Below, one piece after another: positions 1 through 58,575 of a DNA stretch of 64,000 nucleotides (position 1 is the stretch's first letter; the number at the start of each line of letters is the position of its first letter). The translations under genes and the position numbers were made by a program. The DNA comes from Escherichia coli. Its GTDB lineage: Bacteria; Pseudomonadota; Gammaproteobacteria; Enterobacterales; Enterobacteriaceae. Location: assembly GCF_044324785.1 (NCBI RefSeq), contig NZ_CP172127.1. The stretch is one strand, 5' to 3'. The notes under the pieces were generated by a model. The model was not told the DNA's origin. It saw only the letters and a list, made by a program, of their open reading frames with translations, and searched no databases.

Positions 1-1
1 C

Positions 2-1129
2 ATTCAGACGGAACGTATTACAGCCGGAGCTTATGATTACATACTGAAACGTGGTCAGGGGATTAACAGCACTAACTGGTATCTGATTAGCAGAAAAGAC
101 ATTCCTGTACCACAACCTGAAGCTGTACCGGAAAGCCATGATAATAATTTGCGTCCTGAGGCAGGTAGCTATGTTGCCAGTATTGCTGCTGCAAATAATC
201 TGTTTGTAACGAATCTGTATGAACGACAGGGACAGGAGTTGTATATCAGCCACATGACAGGAGAAGAAAATGAAGCAGGTATCTGGATGTATAATAAAGG
301 AAAACATAATCGCTGGCGTGACAACAGTAGTCAGCTGAGAACCCGGGGGAATAGCTACGTTGTGTTAATAGGGGGAGATATAGCTCAGTGGAGCCTGAAT
401 GGTACCGATCGCTGGCATACAGGTATGATGGCTGGCTATGGTCATAATAATAACAGTACGAATGCCCTGAGCACCGGATACCATTCGGAAGGAAGAATGA
501 ATGGATACACAGCGGGTCTTTATGCAACATGGTATGCCAATGATGAAACACACAATGGTTCTTATCTTGATAGCTGGCTGCAATACAGCTGGTTTGATAA
601 TCATATAAATGGAGAACGGCTGCCTGCTGAGTCATGGAAGTCAAAAGGGTTTACGGTATCTCTGGAAGCAGGATATTCATGGAAGGCTGGAGAGTTTACC
701 GACAATTACAAGGGAAGTCATGAATGGTATGTTCAGCCGCAGCTTCAGGTTGTCCGGATGAATGTAAAATCAGACAAATATCATGAAAGTAACGGAACCA
801 GTATTGAAAATACCGGTAACGGAAATATTCTCACCCGCCTGGGAGCAAGAACATGGCTTACCAGCAAAAACGGTAAAAATACGCGGTATGCGGTTCCGTT
901 CAGACCATTTGTGGAGGCACACTGGTTGCACAATAGTCGTGTTTTCGGCACCAGTATGAATGGTGTAAGTATATACCAGGATGGTGCGCGTGATATCGGA
1001 GAAATAAATGGTGGTGTTGTGGGAATGATAACACCAGAAGTAGCATTCCGGGCTGATGCAGGCATTCAACTTGGAGAACATGGATACCATAATACATCTG
1101 CCATGTTGAGTGTGGAATATCGTTTCTGA
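2..1129 (+). CDS. Autotransporter outer-membrane beta-barrel (translocator) domain protein, C-terminal portion; 5' end outside window
   Basis: Reading frame open from nt 2 to stop at 1129 with no stop codon; Gly/Tyr/Trp/Asn-rich alternating composition and terminal aromatic motif ...SVEYRF typical of autotransporter beta-domains; family by recall. Confidence 0.6.
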   Translation: MQTERITAGAYDYILKRGQGINSTNWYLISRKDIPVPQPEAVPESHDNNLRPEAGSYVASIAAANNLFVTNLYERQGQELYISHMTGEENEAGIWMYNKGKHNRWRDNSSQLRTRGNSYVVLIGGDIAQWSLNGTDRWHTGMMAGYGHNNNSTNALSTGYHSEGRMNGYTAGLYATWYANDETHNGSYLDSWLQYSWFDNHINGERLPAESWKSKGFTVSLEAGYSWKAGEFTDNYKGSHEWYVQPQLQVVRMNVKSDKYHESNGTSIENTGNGNILTRLGARTWLTSKNGKNTRYAVPFRPFVEAHWLHNSRVFGTSMNGVSIYQDGARDIGEINGGVVGMITPEVAFRADAGIQLGEHGYHNTSAMLSVEYRF

Positions 1130-1150
1130 TGTGTCGGTAATGACTCCAAC

Positions 1151-1654
1151 TTATTGATAGTGTTTTATGTTCAGATAATGCCCGATGACTTTGTCATGCA
1201 GCTCCACCGATTTTGAGAACGACAGCGACTTCCGTCCCAGCCGTGCCAGGTGCTGCCTCAGATTCAGGTTATGCCGCTCAATTCGCTGCGTATATCGCTT
1301 GCTGATTACGTGCAGCTTTCCCTTCAGGCGGGATTCATACAGCGGCCAGCCATCCGTCATCCATATCACCACGTCAAAGGGTGACAGCAGGCTCATAAGA
1401 CGCCCCAGCGTCGCCATAGTGCGTTCACCGAATACGTGCGCAACAACCGTCTTCCGGAGCCTGTCATACGCGTAAAACAGCCAGCGCTGGCGCGATTTAG
1501 CCCCGACATAGCCCCACTGTTCGTCCATTTCCGCGCAGACGATGACGTCACTGCCCGGCTGTATGCGCGAGGTTACCGACTGCGGCCTGAGTTTTTTAAG
1601 TGACGTAAAATCGTGTTGAGGCCAACGCCCATAATGCGGGCTGTTGCCCGGCAT
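1151..1654 (-). CDS. insB: IS1 transposase InsB frame
   Basis: ORF-track protein ...[46 protein letters not shown] matches IS1 InsB by recall; normally expressed as InsAB' by frameshift. Confidence 0.85.
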
Positions 1655-1848
1655 CCAACGCCATTCATGGCCATATCAATGATTTTCTGGTGCGTACCGG
1701 GTTGAGAAGCGGTGTAAGTGAACTGCAGTTGCCATGTTTTACGGCAGTGAGAGCAGAGATAGCGCTGATGTCCGGCGGTGCTTTTGCCGTTACGCACCAC
1801 CCCGTCAGTAGCTGAACAGGAGGGACAGCTGATAGAAACAGAAGCCAC
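1573..1848 (-). CDS. insA: IS1 InsA
   Basis: 91-aa protein [43 protein letters not shown]... (zinc-finger, HTH) matches IS1 InsA by recall. Confidence 0.85.
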
Positions 1849-2320
1849 TGGAGCACCTCAAAAACACCATCATACACTAAATCAGTAAGTTGGCAGCATC
1901 ACCCGTTCATTTTCTGAGCCTGTAAAACATGTGGTGATATAGTCTGAGAGCATAAAAGTTGAGATTCTGTGTATCAAGTCCTGTCTTGGCACCGAATGAA
2001 TATTGCTTACGAAGCCCCTTCATGCTTTCCTTGAGAACAATAATTTTATCTTTATGTGAATCTCATTTTTTATAATGATGTCAGATGATTGAAATGCTAA
2101 ATTATATCTGAATCAACTTTTCCTTTGCTAAAGGTATAGAAATAACTGCAAGGCTGTATTTTGTAATTGCCAATTTAAAAATGTCAATTTGTTTTTAATT
2201 ATGTTTTTGTAATAAGTTTGAAGACACAAAAAATAATATAATAACAAAAATCCTCCAGCCTTGTAGGCCAGAGGATAAAATACTTAATTGAGGAAAACAT
2301 CAGGGAAAAGTATTTCTGAC

Positions 2321-3505
2321 TTAACTTTCCCGGCTGGAGAGTGAATCAATGTAATCAGCGTACCATTGCATCATTTCACGGCGGCCATCGAGATACAGGG
2401 CATGATTATAGGTACCCCTGATGGAATTTTTATCCACATGAGCTAACTGCATTTCAATCCAGGCAGAATTAAAGCCCTGTTCGTGCAGAATGGTACTCAT
2501 GGTGTGACGAAAACCATGACCGGTTGCCCTGCCATCGTAACCGATACGTTTGAGCACCATATTGATGCTGGCTTCGCTCATTGGCTTGTTGATATCACAA
2601 CGTCCCGGAAAAACCAGCCGGTATTGCCCGGAGAAAGTTTTGAGCTGCAGCAGAATGTCAGTGGCCTGTCGTGACAGTGGTACGACATGTTTACGTCGCA
2701 TTTTCATGCGGCTTTCAGGGATTGTCCACAGTGCATTATCAAAATCAATTTCTGACCATTCAGCGGACCGTAGCTCAATGGTTCTGAGACCTGTCAGAAG
2801 CAGCAGATTTGTCGCCATGCGGGTAACAGGACTGCCATGATACTCAGCGAGCTTCCGGAGAAAAACAGGGAGCTCATCTGCTCTCAGGTGGGGGAAATGT
2901 GCAGCTTTTGGCGCCGCCAGCGTACTGGTCAGTTCAGATGCCGGATTGACAGTGGCTCGTCCGGTGGCGATGGCATAACGAAAAATCTGATTACAGTATT
3001 GACGCACCTTACGAAGTTTTTCCAGCGAGCCACGTTTTTCTATGCGGCGCAGAATTTCCAGCATTTCCAGCGGGAGGATATCCGTAACGCTTCGTTTGCC
3101 CAGATACGGGAAAATATCTTTATCCAGCGCTTCCAGTACGCTTCTGGCGTAACTTTCAGACCATGACAAAGATTTATGCTGGTGCCATTCCGTAGCGAGG
3201 GCATGGAACGTATTGGTGGCAGAGATTTTCTGAGTGAGTTTTTCCTTTCGCTTCTTTTCGCCCGGGTCACCACCTTCGGAGATGATTTTTCGGGCATCGT
3301 CGCGTTTGATTCTGGCCTCAGCAAGGGAGACGTCGGGATAGACGCCGAGGGCCAGTTTTTTCTCTTTTCCTGCTATCCGGTATTTAAGCCGCCAGTAGCG
3401 GGCACCCGTGGTTTTTACCAGCAGATATAAACCACGTTCGTCAGAGAGTTTATAGTCTTTTTCTTTAGGTCTGGCTGTTTCGACCTGTCTGGCTGTAAGT
3501 GCCAT
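2321..3505 (-). CDS. Tyrosine recombinase, P4-type phage/island integrase
   Basis: N-terminus MALTARQVETARPKEKDYKLSDERGLYLLV typical of P4-like integrases; C-terminal catalytic region with HGFRHT...R...Y; start set at ATG 3505 (MALTAR), not the longer track ORF; lies 177 bp from a tRNA-Phe 3' fragment. Confidence 0.85.
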   Translation of the reverse strand: MALTARQVETARPKEKDYKLSDERGLYLLVKTTGARYWRLKYRIAGKEKKLALGVYPDVSLAEARIKRDDARKIISEGGDPGEKKRKEKLTQKISATNTFHALATEWHQHKSLSWSESYARSVLEALDKDIFPYLGKRSVTDILPLEMLEILRRIEKRGSLEKLRKVRQYCNQIFRYAIATGRATVNPASELTSTLAAPKAAHFPHLRADELPVFLRKLAEYHGSPVTRMATNLLLLTGLRTIELRSAEWSEIDFDNALWTIPESRMKMRRKHVVPLSRQATDILLQLKTFSGQYRLVFPGRCDINKPMSEASINMVLKRIGYDGRATGHGFRHTMSTILHEQGFNSAWIEMQLAHVDKNSIRGTYNHALYLDGRREMMQWYADYIDSLSSRES

Positions 3506-3569
3506 ATGGGGGCTCCTGAAACTGACTGAACACAATGAGCCCCCACCGGGGCCCCCAATGAACGCTTGA

Positions 3570-3665
3570 TTGAGAGAGAGTTCAGTAGAGTCTGGTGGAG
3601 TTCAGAATGTTCAGATTGCTTGTAACGATGTGATTATACTTGAGTTTCGTGGAGTTCGGGAGATG
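3570..3665. promoter_or_regulatory. Cluster of short GGAGTTC(A/G)G direct repeats between integrase and tRNA-derived core; candidate arm-type integrase binding sites
   Basis: gagagttcag, tggagttcag, tgttcaga, tggagttcggg within ~100 bp; interpretation is inference. Confidence 0.3.
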
Positions 3666-3681: not shown

Positions 3682-3734
3682 TGGTGCCCGGACTCGGAAT
3701 CGAACCAAGGACACGGGGATTTTCAATCCCCGTG
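3682..3734 (-). repeat. 3' fragment of tRNA-Phe (anticodon stem to CCA) = attachment-site direct repeat / island junction
   Basis: Reverse complement reads GGGGATTGAAAATCCCCGTGTCCTTGGTTCGATTCCGAGTCCGGGCACCA, identical to the 3' ~49 nt of E. coli tRNA-Phe (recall); the 5' half of the tRNA is absent, so not a functional tRNA gene. Confidence 0.75.
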
Positions 3735-3782
3735 CCATAATTGGCTGTGTCAGTTGGTTACACACCATTGAGGTGTGTACTA

Positions 3783-4661
3783 ATGAAAATACTGCCCGTT
3801 GTCTCCACAAAAGGTGGCGAAGGTAAATCAACACAATCCGCAAACCTGGCTGGTTTTCTCGCCGATGCAGGTATCCGTACCCTGCTGATTGACGGAGATC
3901 ATGCTCAGCCCACGGCAAGCAACATCTTTCCGCTGACATATGAAGCGTCAGCCGGTCTTTTTGAGTTGCTGATGCGCACGGCTGACCTCAGTCATCCCGA
4001 TAACATCATTTCCCGCACGGCTATCGACGGACTCGATCTGATAGTCTCCAATGACCCTCATGAGCAGTTAAAAACTGCGATGCTTCACGCCCCGGATGGT
4101 CGTCTGCGCCTCCGGAATGTCCTGCAGCATCCGCTTTTTCTGAACAACTACGATGTCATTGTAGTTGATTCTCAGGGAGCACGTTCTGTCATGCTCGAAA
4201 TGATTATGCTGTCGGCCACTGATTCGGTTGTCGGGATGGTCAATCCGGTACTCCCTGATGTGCGCGAGTTTATTCGGGGCACTGTCAATGTTATGGAGAA
4301 CCTGCTGCCTTACCGGGAGCTGGGGATACCCCTGCCGAAAGTACGCACGCTGGTTAACTGCATGGATTATACGGCACTGGCCAGGAAGACGCTGGATGAG
4401 CTGGCCGGAATTATTCAGACCGGTCGTTACAGCAGACAGTTACCTGAAGGTGCGGTTTCCCTTCTTTCCACACAGATTTACGACCTGAATATTTACAAGC
4501 AGGGGCATGCGGCTGGTCAACCCGTACATCGTCTCGAAAAAGAATCCACACGTCGCAGTGATTCCGCGCTTGTCACGATGCACAGCCTGGCCTGTGAACT
4601 CTTTCCTGAGTGGAAACAGGCGTTTGACGGGCTGCTGGCGAACGGGGGAATACGTCAGTGA
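3783..4661 (+). CDS. ParA/Soj-family partition ATPase
   Basis: MKILPVVSTKGGEGKST deviant Walker A (KGGxGKS/T); first gene inside the ICE next to att repeat as in PAPI-1/SPI-7-type elements (recall); start chosen at ATG 3783. Confidence 0.85.
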   Translation: MKILPVVSTKGGEGKSTQSANLAGFLADAGIRTLLIDGDHAQPTASNIFPLTYEASAGLFELLMRTADLSHPDNIISRTAIDGLDLIVSNDPHEQLKTAMLHAPDGRLRLRNVLQHPLFLNNYDVIVVDSQGARSVMLEMIMLSATDSVVGMVNPVLPDVREFIRGTVNVMENLLPYRELGIPLPKVRTLVNCMDYTALARKTLDELAGIIQTGRYSRQLPEGAVSLLSTQIYDLNIYKQGHAAGQPVHRLEKESTRRSDSALVTMHSLACELFPEWKQAFDGLLANGGIRQ

Positions 4662-4749
4662 TTCAGGTTAAGCGAGAACCATGCAGCTCCGTTACCCTGG
4701 CTTATGGACGTTATCAATACCGGACAATATGACGAGAAGGATTAACCCT

Positions 4750-5244
4750 ATGAATAACAGCAGCAATACCACAACCCGTAATACGCTTTCACCCGTTGAG
4801 TCAGCCTGTCATGCCTTACTGGATTTTATTGCCCGGGAAGTTTTTGAGAATAAAGCACCGGAAGAGGACGTCAGGGAACGTTGCAAAGTATTTACAGCGC
4901 TGCTTAACGAAGGATTTAAAGCCCTGCTTGATGAGGCAGGGCTGAATCTGTCAAACCTTCGTAAACAGTGTGAGGAACTGGAATCTCAGATAACCAGACT
5001 TGATTCTCAGTCCGATGCTATTTGTCGCAGAGGTGCTCAAATTGAACGCTTCATTGGTCACCATTTACCTTTTTTCGATTTGAACAAAGTTTTTGATACT
5101 GCCAGTCAGTCATGTGAACCAGCGCCTTCTCCGGCTCAGTCGGCTGTGTCCAGTAGTCAGCCCAGTAATCTGTCAGAGCAAGGGACATCTCAGCGGGTGT
5201 CATCTGTTCAACCGTTGCAGGGAGCCAGTGATGTTGATGAATAA
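4750..5244 (+). CDS. Hypothetical protein (helical N-terminal part, S/Q/P-rich tail)
   Basis: ATG 4750 preceded by AGAAGGA; tail overlaps a convergent minus-strand ORF, so 3' portion uncertain. Confidence 0.4.
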   Translation: MNNSSNTTTRNTLSPVESACHALLDFIAREVFENKAPEEDVRERCKVFTALLNEGFKALLDEAGLNLSNLRKQCEELESQITRLDSQSDAICRRGAQIERFIGHHLPFFDLNKVFDTASQSCEPAPSPAQSAVSSSQPSNLSEQGTSQRVSSVQPLQGASDVDE

Positions 5245-5527
5245 GAGCAAACTTAACGGCTTGTTGAACGCTGATACTGTTATCGTCCAGAAAAAACCAG
5301 CGGCGGCTGTTAATCAGCCAGTGTCCGAGCCAGCAAAGTCGGTAAGCGAGCTTCCGGTCAGCTCCGGGAAAGATTTCTGTTCCCTGGTCAAAGAAGGTTT
5401 TGCACCGTTCCACATCGTCGGTGCTCATACCTCCGACTTTCCAGTTTTCATAATATTTTGCCATGTTGCCATCCTCATCATGGTTGTTATCAATGCCGGA
5501 CGGCAGTTGCTGATGATTTGTGTTCAT
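5051..5527 (-). CDS. Hypothetical Trp-rich protein, antisense to the parA-dnaB operon direction
   Basis: Protein-like composition (…DYWADYWTQPTEPEKALVHMTDWQYQKL…); start chosen at MNTNHQQ; the same-region plus frame is hydrophobic low-complexity. Confidence 0.45.
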   Translation of the reverse strand: MNTNHQQLPSGIDNNHDEDGNMAKYYENWKVGGMSTDDVERCKTFFDQGTEIFPGADRKLAYRLCWLGHWLINSRRWFFLDDNSISVQQAVKFALIHQHHWLPATVEQMTPAEMSLALTDYWADYWTQPTEPEKALVHMTDWQYQKLCSNRKKVNGDQ

Positions 5528-5735
5528 AAGGTATTTCTCTTCGTAAACATGTTGATTATGAGCGCAAATATGCTGTACGTACCTTCTGACCGGGGTCGGC
5601 AAACTTACCGGTCGGAAAATGTACAGACAGTTATGGGCCTTTTATGCCCTGCAACTGTTCGTCCGGCACCCGTTTTCGTTTTTTTGCATGGTGGGTTTGC
5701 TGTGAAACAGGCTCCGTTTGCCCGGGAGGTGGCGT

Positions 5736-7124
5736 ATGTCTGAACGCTATATTCCACGCTCCGTTGATGCAGAGCAGGCCGTGCTGGGCGGCCTGATGCT
5801 CGATAATGAACGCTGGGATGAGGTGGTACTGATGCTCCGGGGGGAGGATTTTTCTCTGGCCGCACACCGGGTGATATTCCGCACCATGTCAGAGCTGGCA
5901 ACCAGCGGTCAGCCGTTCGACCTCATCACGCTGAGTGAGCATATTGAGAAAACAAACAATATTGAGGCACTGGGTGGTTTCGCTTATCTGGCTGAACTCA
6001 GCAAAAATACGCCTTCTGCAGCCAATATTATCGCTTATGCCCGTATTGTTGCTGAAAAGAGCATGCTGCGTCAGTTGCAGGAGACGGGGAATGCGCTGAT
6101 TACGGATGTGGCCGCACCGGATGCGACACCACGCACTGTTCTTGAATCCGCTGAACGTCGGCTCTTTTCACTTTCACAGACTGGCATGTTGCATGAGCGA
6201 TGTGAAGTCAGTCTCACCTCGGCTATGGAGCTGGCGCTGCGTCAACTGGAAGAGGGACTGAACGCCGGCGGGATGACGGGCACGCCCACGGGATTTGATG
6301 AACTGGATAAGATGACCTGTGGTCTGCAGCCCGGCGACCTCATTCTTCTGGCTGCACGCCCGTCTATGGGGAAAACAGCGCTGGGCCTTACCTTCTGTCT
6401 TAATGCCCTGTGTAACCGGACCGATGAAACGGTATTTCTTTTCAGTATCGAAATGTCCCGGGAGCAGCTGATTCTGCGTGTCCTGTCAATGCTCTCCAGG
6501 GTGGAGCTGACACGTCTTCGCAGCAGCATGATGAATGATGAAGAGTGGGCGAGAGTCACGGCAACCATGGGACGCTTCATGAATGAAGCGTCATTCATCG
6601 GAGATGGAAACCGCCTGATAATTGATGACACCTCCTTCCAGACGCCGTCATCGCTGCGTGCCAGCGCCCGTCGTTATGTCCGTCTGTATGGCAGACCTTC
6701 CCTGATAATGGTTGATTACCTCCAGCTGATTCGTTCTCCGGACCAGGAGAACCGAACGCAGGAAATTGCGGAAATATCCCGCGCCCTTAAGGCGTTAGGT
6801 AAAGAGCTGGGATGCCCGGTACTGGCACTGTCTCAGCTTAACCGTCAGGTGGAGCAGCGGGCGGATAAGCGCCCCAATAACGGTGACCTGCGTGATTCCG
6901 GGGCGCTGGAGCAGGATGCTGACCTCATTATGTTTATTTACCGTGATGAGGTTTATAACTCTGGCACGCTGGATAAGGGCGTTGCTGAAATCATTGTGAG
7001 CAAACAGCGGCAGGGGCCAACCGGAACGATACGGGTGAACTTCGACGGCCGCTACACCCTGTTTTCACCGTTTGAACGTGGATGGAATTTTGACCGTGCC
7101 GGAGGAAATGCGTATGTCAATTAA
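5736..7124 (+). CDS. DnaB-like replicative DNA helicase
   Basis: N-terminal DnaB domain (AEQAVLGGLMLDN), Walker A ARPSMGKTALGLTF, Walker B IMVDYLQL; SD GGGAGGTGG before ATG 5736. Confidence 0.9.
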   Translation: MSERYIPRSVDAEQAVLGGLMLDNERWDEVVLMLRGEDFSLAAHRVIFRTMSELATSGQPFDLITLSEHIEKTNNIEALGGFAYLAELSKNTPSAANIIAYARIVAEKSMLRQLQETGNALITDVAAPDATPRTVLESAERRLFSLSQTGMLHERCEVSLTSAMELALRQLEEGLNAGGMTGTPTGFDELDKMTCGLQPGDLILLAARPSMGKTALGLTFCLNALCNRTDETVFLFSIEMSREQLILRVLSMLSRVELTRLRSSMMNDEEWARVTATMGRFMNEASFIGDGNRLIIDDTSFQTPSSLRASARRYVRLYGRPSLIMVDYLQLIRSPDQENRTQEIAEISRALKALGKELGCPVLALSQLNRQVEQRADKRPNNGDLRDSGALEQDADLIMFIYRDEVYNSGTLDKGVAEIIVSKQRQGPTGTIRVNFDGRYTLFSPFERGWNFDRAGGNAYVN

Positions 7125-17940: not shown

Positions 17941-18270
17941 TGGCAGGGCTAACTTGTCGCTCCGGCGACCACCAATGTTCCATAGTGGCCTGTGAGGAAC
18001 GCCTTCGGGTGGCCCATGTCGCTTCAGCGACCACCAATGTTCCATGTGGCCTGTGAGGAACGCCTTCGGGTGGCCCACGTCGCTCCGGCGACCACCAATG
18101 CTTCATCTGACCTGTGAGGAGCGCCTTCGGGTGGTCAGTTTTACACCTCCTGAGCCTGAAAGGAGCTGTGCGTACTGAAGGGATATATTCCCGGAAGTAC
18201 GGGCAAATCTGCACACCTTTGAGAGCAGATGTCACTGCGGTTTTCCGTGATGATGAAGGCTTTTTTTACT
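17941..18270 (+). repeat. Structured ~320-bp element, copy 1 of 3 (three ~61-bp tandem units plus hairpin-rich tail)
   Basis: Unit gtcgctccggcgaccaccaatgttccatgtggcctgtgaggaacgccttcgggtggcccac x3, then tail with CTCCT/AGGAG, GTACT/AGTAC, ATCTGC/GCAGAT stems; near-identical at 46163 and 48465. Confidence 0.85.
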
Positions 18271-18385
18271 GCACAGACAGCCGGAAATTCAGCTGATTCC
18301 GGCATCCCCGACGGGAACTATCACTCCCGTCAGGGCTGGTGATGTTCTCCGTCATATCTTTTTTTCACTCCATGGAGAAATCATC

Positions 18386-45996: not shown

Positions 45997-46162
45997 ATTA
46001 TCACCTTTTGTCTGACAGTTCATTTGTTGATGCTATCACGATATTCGCGATGCGGTAAATATATCAATATGTTGGTTTATTTGTGTAATACATTATTTCC
46101 CATATGCCATAAATCAGTCTGTTGACGATAGCTTTTTTCTTTTGTTATTCTGTTCCCGCATT

Positions 46163-46478
46163 AACTGTCGCTTCGGCGACCACCAATGTTCCATGAGGCC
46201 TGTGAGGAACGCCTTCGGGTGGCCCATGTCGCTCCGGCGACCACCAATGTTCCATGTGGCCTGTGAGGAACGCCTTCGGGTGGCCCACGTCGCTCCGGCG
46301 ACCACCAATGCTCCATCTGACCAGTGAGGAGCGCCTTCGGGTGGTCAGTTTTACACCTCCGTAGCCTGAAAGGAGCTGTGCGTGCTGATGGGATATGTTT
46401 CCGGAAGTACGGGTAAATCTGCACACCTTTGCGAGCAGATGTCACCACGGTTTACGTGATGATGAAGGCATTCCGGAT
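46163..46478 (+). repeat. Structured ~320-bp element, copy 2 of 3
   Basis: Same three-unit plus hairpin-tail organisation as 17941-18270, with a few substitutions. Confidence 0.85.
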
Positions 46479-48415: not shown

Positions 48416-48464
48416 ATTTTTTTGTTGTTCTTCCACGTAGTTTGTGCTTACAATTTAAACGCTA

Positions 48465-48775
48465 ACTTGTCGCTTCGGCGACCACCAATGTTCCATGTGG
48501 CCTGTGAGGAACGCCTTCGGGTGGCCCATGTCGCTCCGGCGACCACCAATGTTCCATGTGGCCTGTGAGGAACGCCTTCGGGTGGCCCACGTCGCTCCGG
48601 CGACCACCAATGCTTCATCTGACCTGTGAGGAGCGCCTTCGGGTGGTCAGTTTTACACCTCCTGAGCCTGAAAGGAGCTGTGCGTACTGAAGGGATATGT
48701 TTCCGGAAGTACGGGCAAATCTGCACACCTTTGAGAGCAGATGTCACTGCGGTTTTCCGTGATGATGAAGGCTTT
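48465..48775 (+). repeat. Structured ~320-bp element, copy 3 of 3
   Basis: Near-identical to copy 1. Confidence 0.85.
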
Positions 48776-48901
48776 TTTATCACTGTATGACCTGAGTTAT
48801 CTCTGGTCCTTAAGCACATCGTGTTATCGCATTGATGTGTTCACCTGACGGATTTTCCAGTCCGTCAGGGCGGAACGTCCGTCTTTTATCCGGAGGTTCC
48901 A

Positions 48902-58367: not shown

Positions 58368-58425
58368 AACGCACCTCCAGAATGCACGGAGGTACTTGAC
58401 GCGGAATTTTTATACAGGCATATTG

Positions 58426-58575
58426 TTGCGTTGCGTTGCGTTGCGTTGCGTTGCGTTGCGTTGCGTTGCGTTGCGTTGCGTTGCGTTGCGTTGCGTTGCG
58501 TTGCGTTGCGTTGCGTTGCGTTGCGTTGCGTTGCGTTGCGTTGCGTTGCGTTGCGTTGCGTTGCGTTGCGTTGCG
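58426..58575. repeat. Perfect pentanucleotide repeat (TTGCG)x30; (CGCAA)x30 on the mod-sense strand
   Basis: 150 bp of uninterrupted 5-nt periodicity, 58 bp upstream of mod ATG, preceded on the sense strand by ATG-AAA with SD GAGG. Confidence 0.95.

Follow-up and report, generated by a model that had tools for sequence, protein, structure and literature searches.

Introduction

Deletions adjacent to IS1 are a classical phenomenon, described for gal/IS1: one end of the deletion is fixed at the element, the other endpoints are nested, the IS is kept and no target duplication is present. A natural setting in which IS1 is found beside a virulence gene is the 3' side of aatA, an adhesin gene of avian pathogenic Escherichia coli (APEC), for which both the gene size and a homologue in BL21 have been published (PMC2944236). 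The passages of Dai et al. 2010 (PMC2944236) on the flanking regions of this gene report IS2/IS91 on its 5' side and IS1, IS30 and IS629 on its 3' side, and infer horizontal transfer. Here we describe a locus in which the end of aatA is joined through an IS1 without target duplication to the remnant of another gene and a hybrid integrase gene, and we compare it with related loci from complete E. coli genomes.

Results and Discussion

The window, by which we mean the whole stretch of 64,000 nucleotides that was analysed, contains one complete IS1 of the IS1A type (768 bp, 1136..1903, minus strand). Both terminal repeats, GGTAATGACTCCAACTTATTGATAGTG (1136-1162, plus strand) and GGTGATGCTGCCAACTTACTGATTTAGTG (1903-1875, minus strand), are exact matches, occur once each in the window and lie 768 bp apart. 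The element encodes insA (1848..1573, minus strand, an ORF of 91 aa) and insB' (1654..1151, minus strand, 167 aa) with an intact A6C frameshift motif TTAAAAAAC, and it is 100% identical to RefSeq copies annotated as 'IS1A family transposase, programmed frameshift'. Thus, it shows the length of about 768 bp, the imperfect terminal inverted repeats of the ~23-30 bp type and the -1 frameshift between insA and insB' at A6C that are typical of the IS1 family. Its IRR end points toward aatA and its IRL end toward the integrase gene. An earlier sequence-only reading had placed the element at 1136-1902; the start holds, and the end lies one base further, at 1903. The same reading let IS1 begin 6 bp past the stop codon of the autotransporter gene, which agrees with the position of the TGA at 1127-1129. 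A search with the terminal repeats found no second IS1 copy in the 64,000-nt window that could have served as a recombination partner.

On the left side the element adjoins the 3' part of an autotransporter adhesin gene (1..1129, plus strand; ORF 149..1129), the start of which lies outside the window. Over 1,135 bp this part matches the locus of the 3,498-bp autotransporter CDS in strain M25631H with 100% identity, and one site distinguishes it from BL21. Judged by its sequence, the fragment is the last 1,129 bp of the APEC adhesin gene aatA, a 3,498-bp ORF with homologues in BL21/REL606 and on APEC plasmids and with a C-terminal beta-barrel of the AIDA type, and only this portion of the gene is present in the window. 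Between stop codon and IS1 only the 6 bp TGTGTC (1130..1135, plus strand) survive of the native 3' flank, and they mark the putative left deletion endpoint. In BL21 and in plasmid pHS30-1, which both lack IS1 here, TGATGTGTC runs on into TTTACATTATAAATATC / TTTACATTAT, and the native DNA 3' of aatA on the BL21 chromosome and on pHS30-1 consists of a hypothetical-gene fragment, a phoA fragment and relE/yefM.

The right side has a different origin. The window sequence CGTTCAT (1904-1910) is the reverse complement of ATGAACG, the start of a 1,044-bp tetratricopeptide-repeat (TPR) gene, and these first 7 nt of the gene (1904..1910, minus strand) form the fixed right junction when compared with strain YL3. 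In the IS1-free YL3 locus the TPR CDS is intact (4964..6007, minus strand), similarity to the window sets in at 6001, and the sequence at the junction is AGCATAATCTAT followed by CGTTCATTTTCTGAG. The gene order in this selC island is tRNA-Sec, integrase, a spacer of 410 bp and the intact 1,044-bp TPR gene. Comparison with M25631H and YL3 also identifies the AT-rich DNA between TPR gene remnant and integrase in the window (1911..2320) as a spacer of the selC-island type, the first 560 bp right of IS1 being 100% identical to M25631H and showing 6 mismatches to YL3. A homologous TPR gene is found in strain VTB96937v (900-1760 of the extracted locus), where it is cut by another IS1 in opposite orientation that is itself interrupted and sits 14 bp from the position of the junction in the window. 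It appears that IS1 has targeted the 5' end of the TPR gene repeatedly.

To the left and right of IS1 the abutting 9-mers are TGATGTGTC (1127-1135) and CGTTCATTT (1904-1912), and they differ. The sequence-only reading had described these flanks as not duplicated, which we can confirm and extend, as no repeat of any length adjoins the IS1 ends. The longest word common to the 30-bp flanks is the 7-mer TTTCTGA (1114-1120 and 1911-1917), lying 7-13 bp away from IS1 on the left side and 8-14 bp away on the right. It abuts neither end and was set aside as a probable chance repeat. Thus, the 8-9-bp direct duplication of a simple IS1 insertion is absent from the window. As such a duplication is a feature of the insertion event and not of the element, this shows that the present flanks of IS1 do not derive from one insertion. 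The missing duplication is informative because perfect duplications of 8-9 bp flank all six simple IS1 insertions that we found in other strains within the same two neighbourhoods. Three of them follow aatA, namely in pPKF8 (+202, CGGTCACTG), p13QT31-2 (+154, TGTTTAGGA) and pF801-2 (+1057, CATTTTTT, 8 bp), and the others are located in the 3' part of the TPR gene in SK0832 (CCAGGGCCA), inside the integrase gene in VTB96816v (GGTACCCCT) and in a hypothetical gene adjoining the TPR gene in CRE10 (AGCATTATG).

If IS1 had simply inserted at this site, relatives might show an empty site at which both flanks run together uninterrupted, which had been named beforehand as the observation that would speak against a loss of DNA. 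Using the joined flanks as queries (146 nt and 1,321 nt) we searched a collection of 5,426 complete E. coli genomes. Contiguous flanks without IS1 were found in 0 of the 5,426 genomes with the 146-nt query and likewise in none with the 1,321-nt query, even though one flank or the other is present in 975 of them. In the relatives without IS1 each flank leads into different, unrelated DNA, as seen for aatA in BL21 and pHS30-1 and for the TPR gene in YL3. The proposal that DNA between autotransporter and integrase gene has been lost therefore withstood this test, and it is borne out by the shortening of both sides relative to the IS1-free forms and by M25631H, a strain with exactly the joint of the window and a single chromosomal IS1: neither the block of TPR, LacI, MFS and GH31 genes nor the block 3' of aatA was found anywhere in its 58-kb selC island. 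The joint between aatA+6 and IS1 was found in about 175 records, the right junction in 156 genomes and both flanks together in 135, so the joint is an old, fixed allele and not private to the genome of the window. It is absent from the PLSDB plasmids, whose IS1 copies at +154, +202 and +1057 are simple insertions with duplications. A further plasmid, the IncHI1B plasmid NZ_CP149470.1 from Salmonella enterica, carries the aatA 3' end with the native downstream region and an IS1 (4001-4768) at a distance of about 2.2 kb from that end, flanked by AAAAGCCG / CATTTGGCT and without duplication; in the plasmid table, which is incomplete by design, no autotransporter is annotated there.

A closer relationship to deletions becomes visible when the alleles of this joint are compared. 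Strains LR-50 and LR-17-1 share the right junction ACC|CGTTCATTT with the window and have different left junctions, IS1 following the aatA stop codon at +132 in LR-50, at +109 in LR-17-1 and at +6 in the window. The +6 and +132 alleles are 99.92% identical over 5.2 kb upstream, and over the 2.3 kb right of IS1, through the integrase gene to selC, the +6 allele is 99.74% identical to the +132 and 99.78% identical to the +109 allele, compared with 99.2% for the IS1-free YL3. Within IS1 the +6 allele differs from the +109 and +132 alleles at two sites, 325 and 507. One right junction combined with three left junctions shows the pattern of nested IS1-adjacent deletions: the flanks are non-contiguous in the references, DNA is missing and the endpoints are nested about a constant junction. 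In all three inspected loci with the right junction of the window the aatA-IS1 block is located at selC. The +132/+109/+6 series could also be used as a marker of lineages among aatA-positive APEC/ExPEC strains.

IS1 is found at joints 3' of aatA in other strains as well. An independent case is CFSAN061761, which has the arrangement of BL21 except that 5.65 kb are missing between +53 after aatA and a point within setC; IS1 occupies the joint without a duplication, and both endpoints lie on collinear BL21 DNA. In two further independent cases IS1 is found at +324 after aatA in SL124, its other flank lying 54 bp from tRNA-Sec, and at +1154 in an argW island in ZF8-1. In Combat13F7 (NZ_CP019245.1, 1725744-1730772) an aatA+132-IS1 junction is separated by about 4.6 kb from an IS1-CGTTCATTT junction on the other strand, which suggests an inversion between two IS1 copies. 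Every IS1 found 3' of aatA shares the orientation of the one in the window, but an apparent bias of this kind was discarded as evidence, as the search joined pieces on one strand only and left inverted copies unflagged.

From these data we propose that the IS1 in the window is very probably the joint left by an IS1-mediated rearrangement and not a simple insertion, and a two-step course is the most likely and most economical account. In the first step an IS1 that already occupied the 5' end of the TPR gene, and the IRL end of which (1903) would have stayed fixed 7 nt inside this gene beside the selC-type integrase gene, would have become fused to the region 3' of aatA under removal of the TPR gene body, by an adjacent deletion or else by a fusion of replicons with subsequent loss of DNA. 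This would have placed DNA of the mobile aatA module beside the IRR end (1136) of the element. In the second step a further IS1-adjacent deletion would have trimmed the 3' flank of aatA from at least +132 bp to +6 bp and kept the stop codon. Intramolecular replicative transposition, in which the IS and one old flank are kept while the other end attacks a new target, could bring this about, and no flanking duplication would be expected because this process joins the IS end to a new target. As to the earlier statement that IS1 inserted 6 bp after the stop codon, the position is correct and there is no evidence of an insertion at that spot; it is more likely the place where a deletion spreading from the resident IS1 came to an end.

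The founding fusion between aatA and IS1 could equally have been a plasmid cointegrate event, since aatA of the window type is closest to the copies on IncHI plasmids (99.4-99.9%). We also looked for the junctions that a precursor or a reciprocal product should carry, that is the TPR gene body up to CGTTCATTT followed by IS1, and IS1 followed by TGATGTGTCTTTACAT. With 150-nt and long queries both were absent from the 5,426 genomes; the 40-mers ATCTATCGTTCATTTGGTAATGACTCC and GCAGCATCACCTGATGTGTCTTTACAT would mark a surviving precursor or reciprocal product. Full-coverage matches in this search (SK0832, VTB96816v, CRE10, pPKF8 and the loci L010 and L011) were rejected, as they are composed of several pieces and come from other IS1 insertions nearby. 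Because no such junction survives, we only infer the order of events, as we do the molecular mechanism, from the boundaries, the missing duplication, the unrelated flanks and the allelic series, all of which are directly seen.

The sequence-only reading had offered an adjacent deletion or a recombination between two IS1 copies as explanations, and both are still alive. In the second of them, RecA-dependent recombination between two IS1 copies in direct repeat would have removed the intervening DNA together with one IS1, starting from simple insertions with duplications, the first of them located 6 bp beyond aatA and the second within the TPR gene or else in an earlier +132 allele. We consider this possible but the less probable course. 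Its product at the joint would be indistinguishable from that of a deletion, and suitable raw material exists, as the independent simple insertions 3' of aatA (+154, +202 and +1057) all carry duplications and the neighbourhood of TPR and integrase gene has been struck by IS1 too. The differences at sites 325 and 507 would be expected if another IS1 copy had supplied the left part of the element; they count against a simple descent of the alleles by intramolecular transposition, and the two-step account needs gene conversion, mutation or an IS1×IS1 crossover to accommodate them. However, under recombination each nested member of the series needs an extra IS1 in the same orientation 23-126 bp from the existing copy and thus more events, neither precursor junction has been kept in any of the 5,426 genomes, and the element is no mosaic with divergent plasmid IS1 variants such as that of pPKF8 (96.9%).

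Two simpler explanations can practically be dismissed. The length of IS1 duplications does vary, as seen from the 8 bp in pF801-2, and one might therefore think of a simple insertion with a duplication that has decayed or is of atypical length, but flanks from different loci, the missing empty site and the lack of any repeat at the ends refute this idea. Equally improbable is a false join by collapse of two IS1 copies during assembly: although the multicopy IS1 is known to break short-read assemblies, about 135-175 independent complete genomes share this joint, among them the strain with a single chromosomal IS1, which refutes such an artefact.

Beyond the spacer the window carries an ORF for a P4-type tyrosine integrase (2321..3535, minus strand), which is the longest ORF from 3535 and probably has its real start at the ATG at 3505. 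BLAST segments and a per-site comparison, in which the loci L001 and YL3 (L003) represented the selC type and L005 and VTB96937v (L006) the Phe type, revealed this gene to be a hybrid: its 3' end up to 2384 is of the selC-island type and from 2465 on it is of the tRNA-Phe-island type, placing the crossover within an identical stretch of 80 bp (2385-2464). Accordingly, the DNA from IS1 to 2464 is identical to M25631H (selC type) and from 2465 on it follows the integrase genes of CM2 and VTB96937v. As far as can be judged from the sequences, this implies that paralogous P4-type integrase genes recombined homologously, whereby the aatA-IS1 block came to lie at another tRNA site. Within the proposed course of events a homologous crossover inside the integrase gene would thus have followed the deletions and brought the block beside the integrase of the tRNA-Phe type. 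The combination seen in the window occurs in no complete E. coli genome of the collection, and the coverage of window 1-3600 by any single record does not exceed 70%.

Next to the integrase gene lies the 3' part of a tRNA-Phe (GAA) gene of about 48 nt (3683..3731, minus strand), recognised by sequence and Rfam as an attachment-site remnant. The Rfam tRNA match (3693-3746, minus strand) is sub-threshold with 22.6 bits and includes the anticodon loop CUGAAAA; ARAGORN detected no complete tRNA in the 64 kb. Located between the integrase gene and parA of an integrative and conjugative element (ICE), this remnant represents the att repeat within an array of tandem islands. The ICE is of the SPI-7/PAPI-1 type according to the RefSeq annotation of near-identical loci, starts at 3741 (plus strand) and runs off the window at 64000, and it encodes parA, dnaB-PI, parB, topoisomerase III, a type IV pilus and conjugation genes. 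This ICE provides context only and has no part in the IS1 event. Over 17949-64000 it shares 99.93-99.96% identity with the ICE of APEC E19035, an O2:K1:H5 strain in which another island (tia, eptA) adjoins the ICE. The E19035 counterpart carries a type III restriction-modification system, and an overlap or indel of about 150 bp relative to E19035 lies near 58425-58577. Extra BLAST matches to E19035 revealed a repeat of about 315-325 bp in three copies (17948-18271, 46162-46472 and 48462-48785) that are 93-97.5% identical. An autotransporter fragment in the E19035 ICE was considered as a second copy of aatA and rejected, as it has no similarity to aatA.

Conclusion

In summary the observation of an IS1 without target duplication is confirmed and its interpretation as the trace of a rearrangement is supported, while the phenomenon itself is classical and IS1 3' of aatA has been known since 2010. 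The new detail, consisting of the TPR gene remnant, the nested series and the hybrid integrase gene, is descriptive only. Its main value lies in annotation, as it explains an IS1 without duplication and assigns the adjoining 7 nt to a TPR gene that has been destroyed. In addition, it indicates that the aatA module came to adjoin the integrase gene through IS1-driven loss of DNA, and the hybrid integrase gene suggests that a block with a virulence gene can switch its tRNA site through plain homologous recombination. More tentatively, and with some doubt on our side, the IS1 copies at aatA might act as a recurrent 'portable joint', where repeated trimming of the 3' flank as far as the stop codon together with crossovers in the conserved 3' end of P4-type integrase genes shuttles aatA between plasmids and selC, argW and pheV/U. 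Were this true, the +6 endpoint would represent a selected limit of deletion, and aatA would be kept functional in about 3% of the sequenced E. coli.

Compared with the flanking-region variants of aatA in Dai et al. 2010 (PMC2944236), the window shows the same 3,498-bp gene with IS1 on its 3' side; the passages on these variants contain nothing on junctions, target duplications, a TPR remnant or a nested series. The tandem tRNA-Phe islands of CM2, VTB96937v and APEC E19035 likewise have an integrase gene, a partial tRNA-Phe and then the parA/dnaB-PI end of an ICE, whereas the window differs from them by its selC/Phe hybrid integrase and by the aatA-IS1 block in the adjoining island. With its common right junction and the nested left endpoints at +132, +109 and +6 the series follows the same pattern as the classical gal/IS1 deletions, from which it differs in that its members are natural alleles of wild strains and not selected in the laboratory, and in the two SNPs within IS1.
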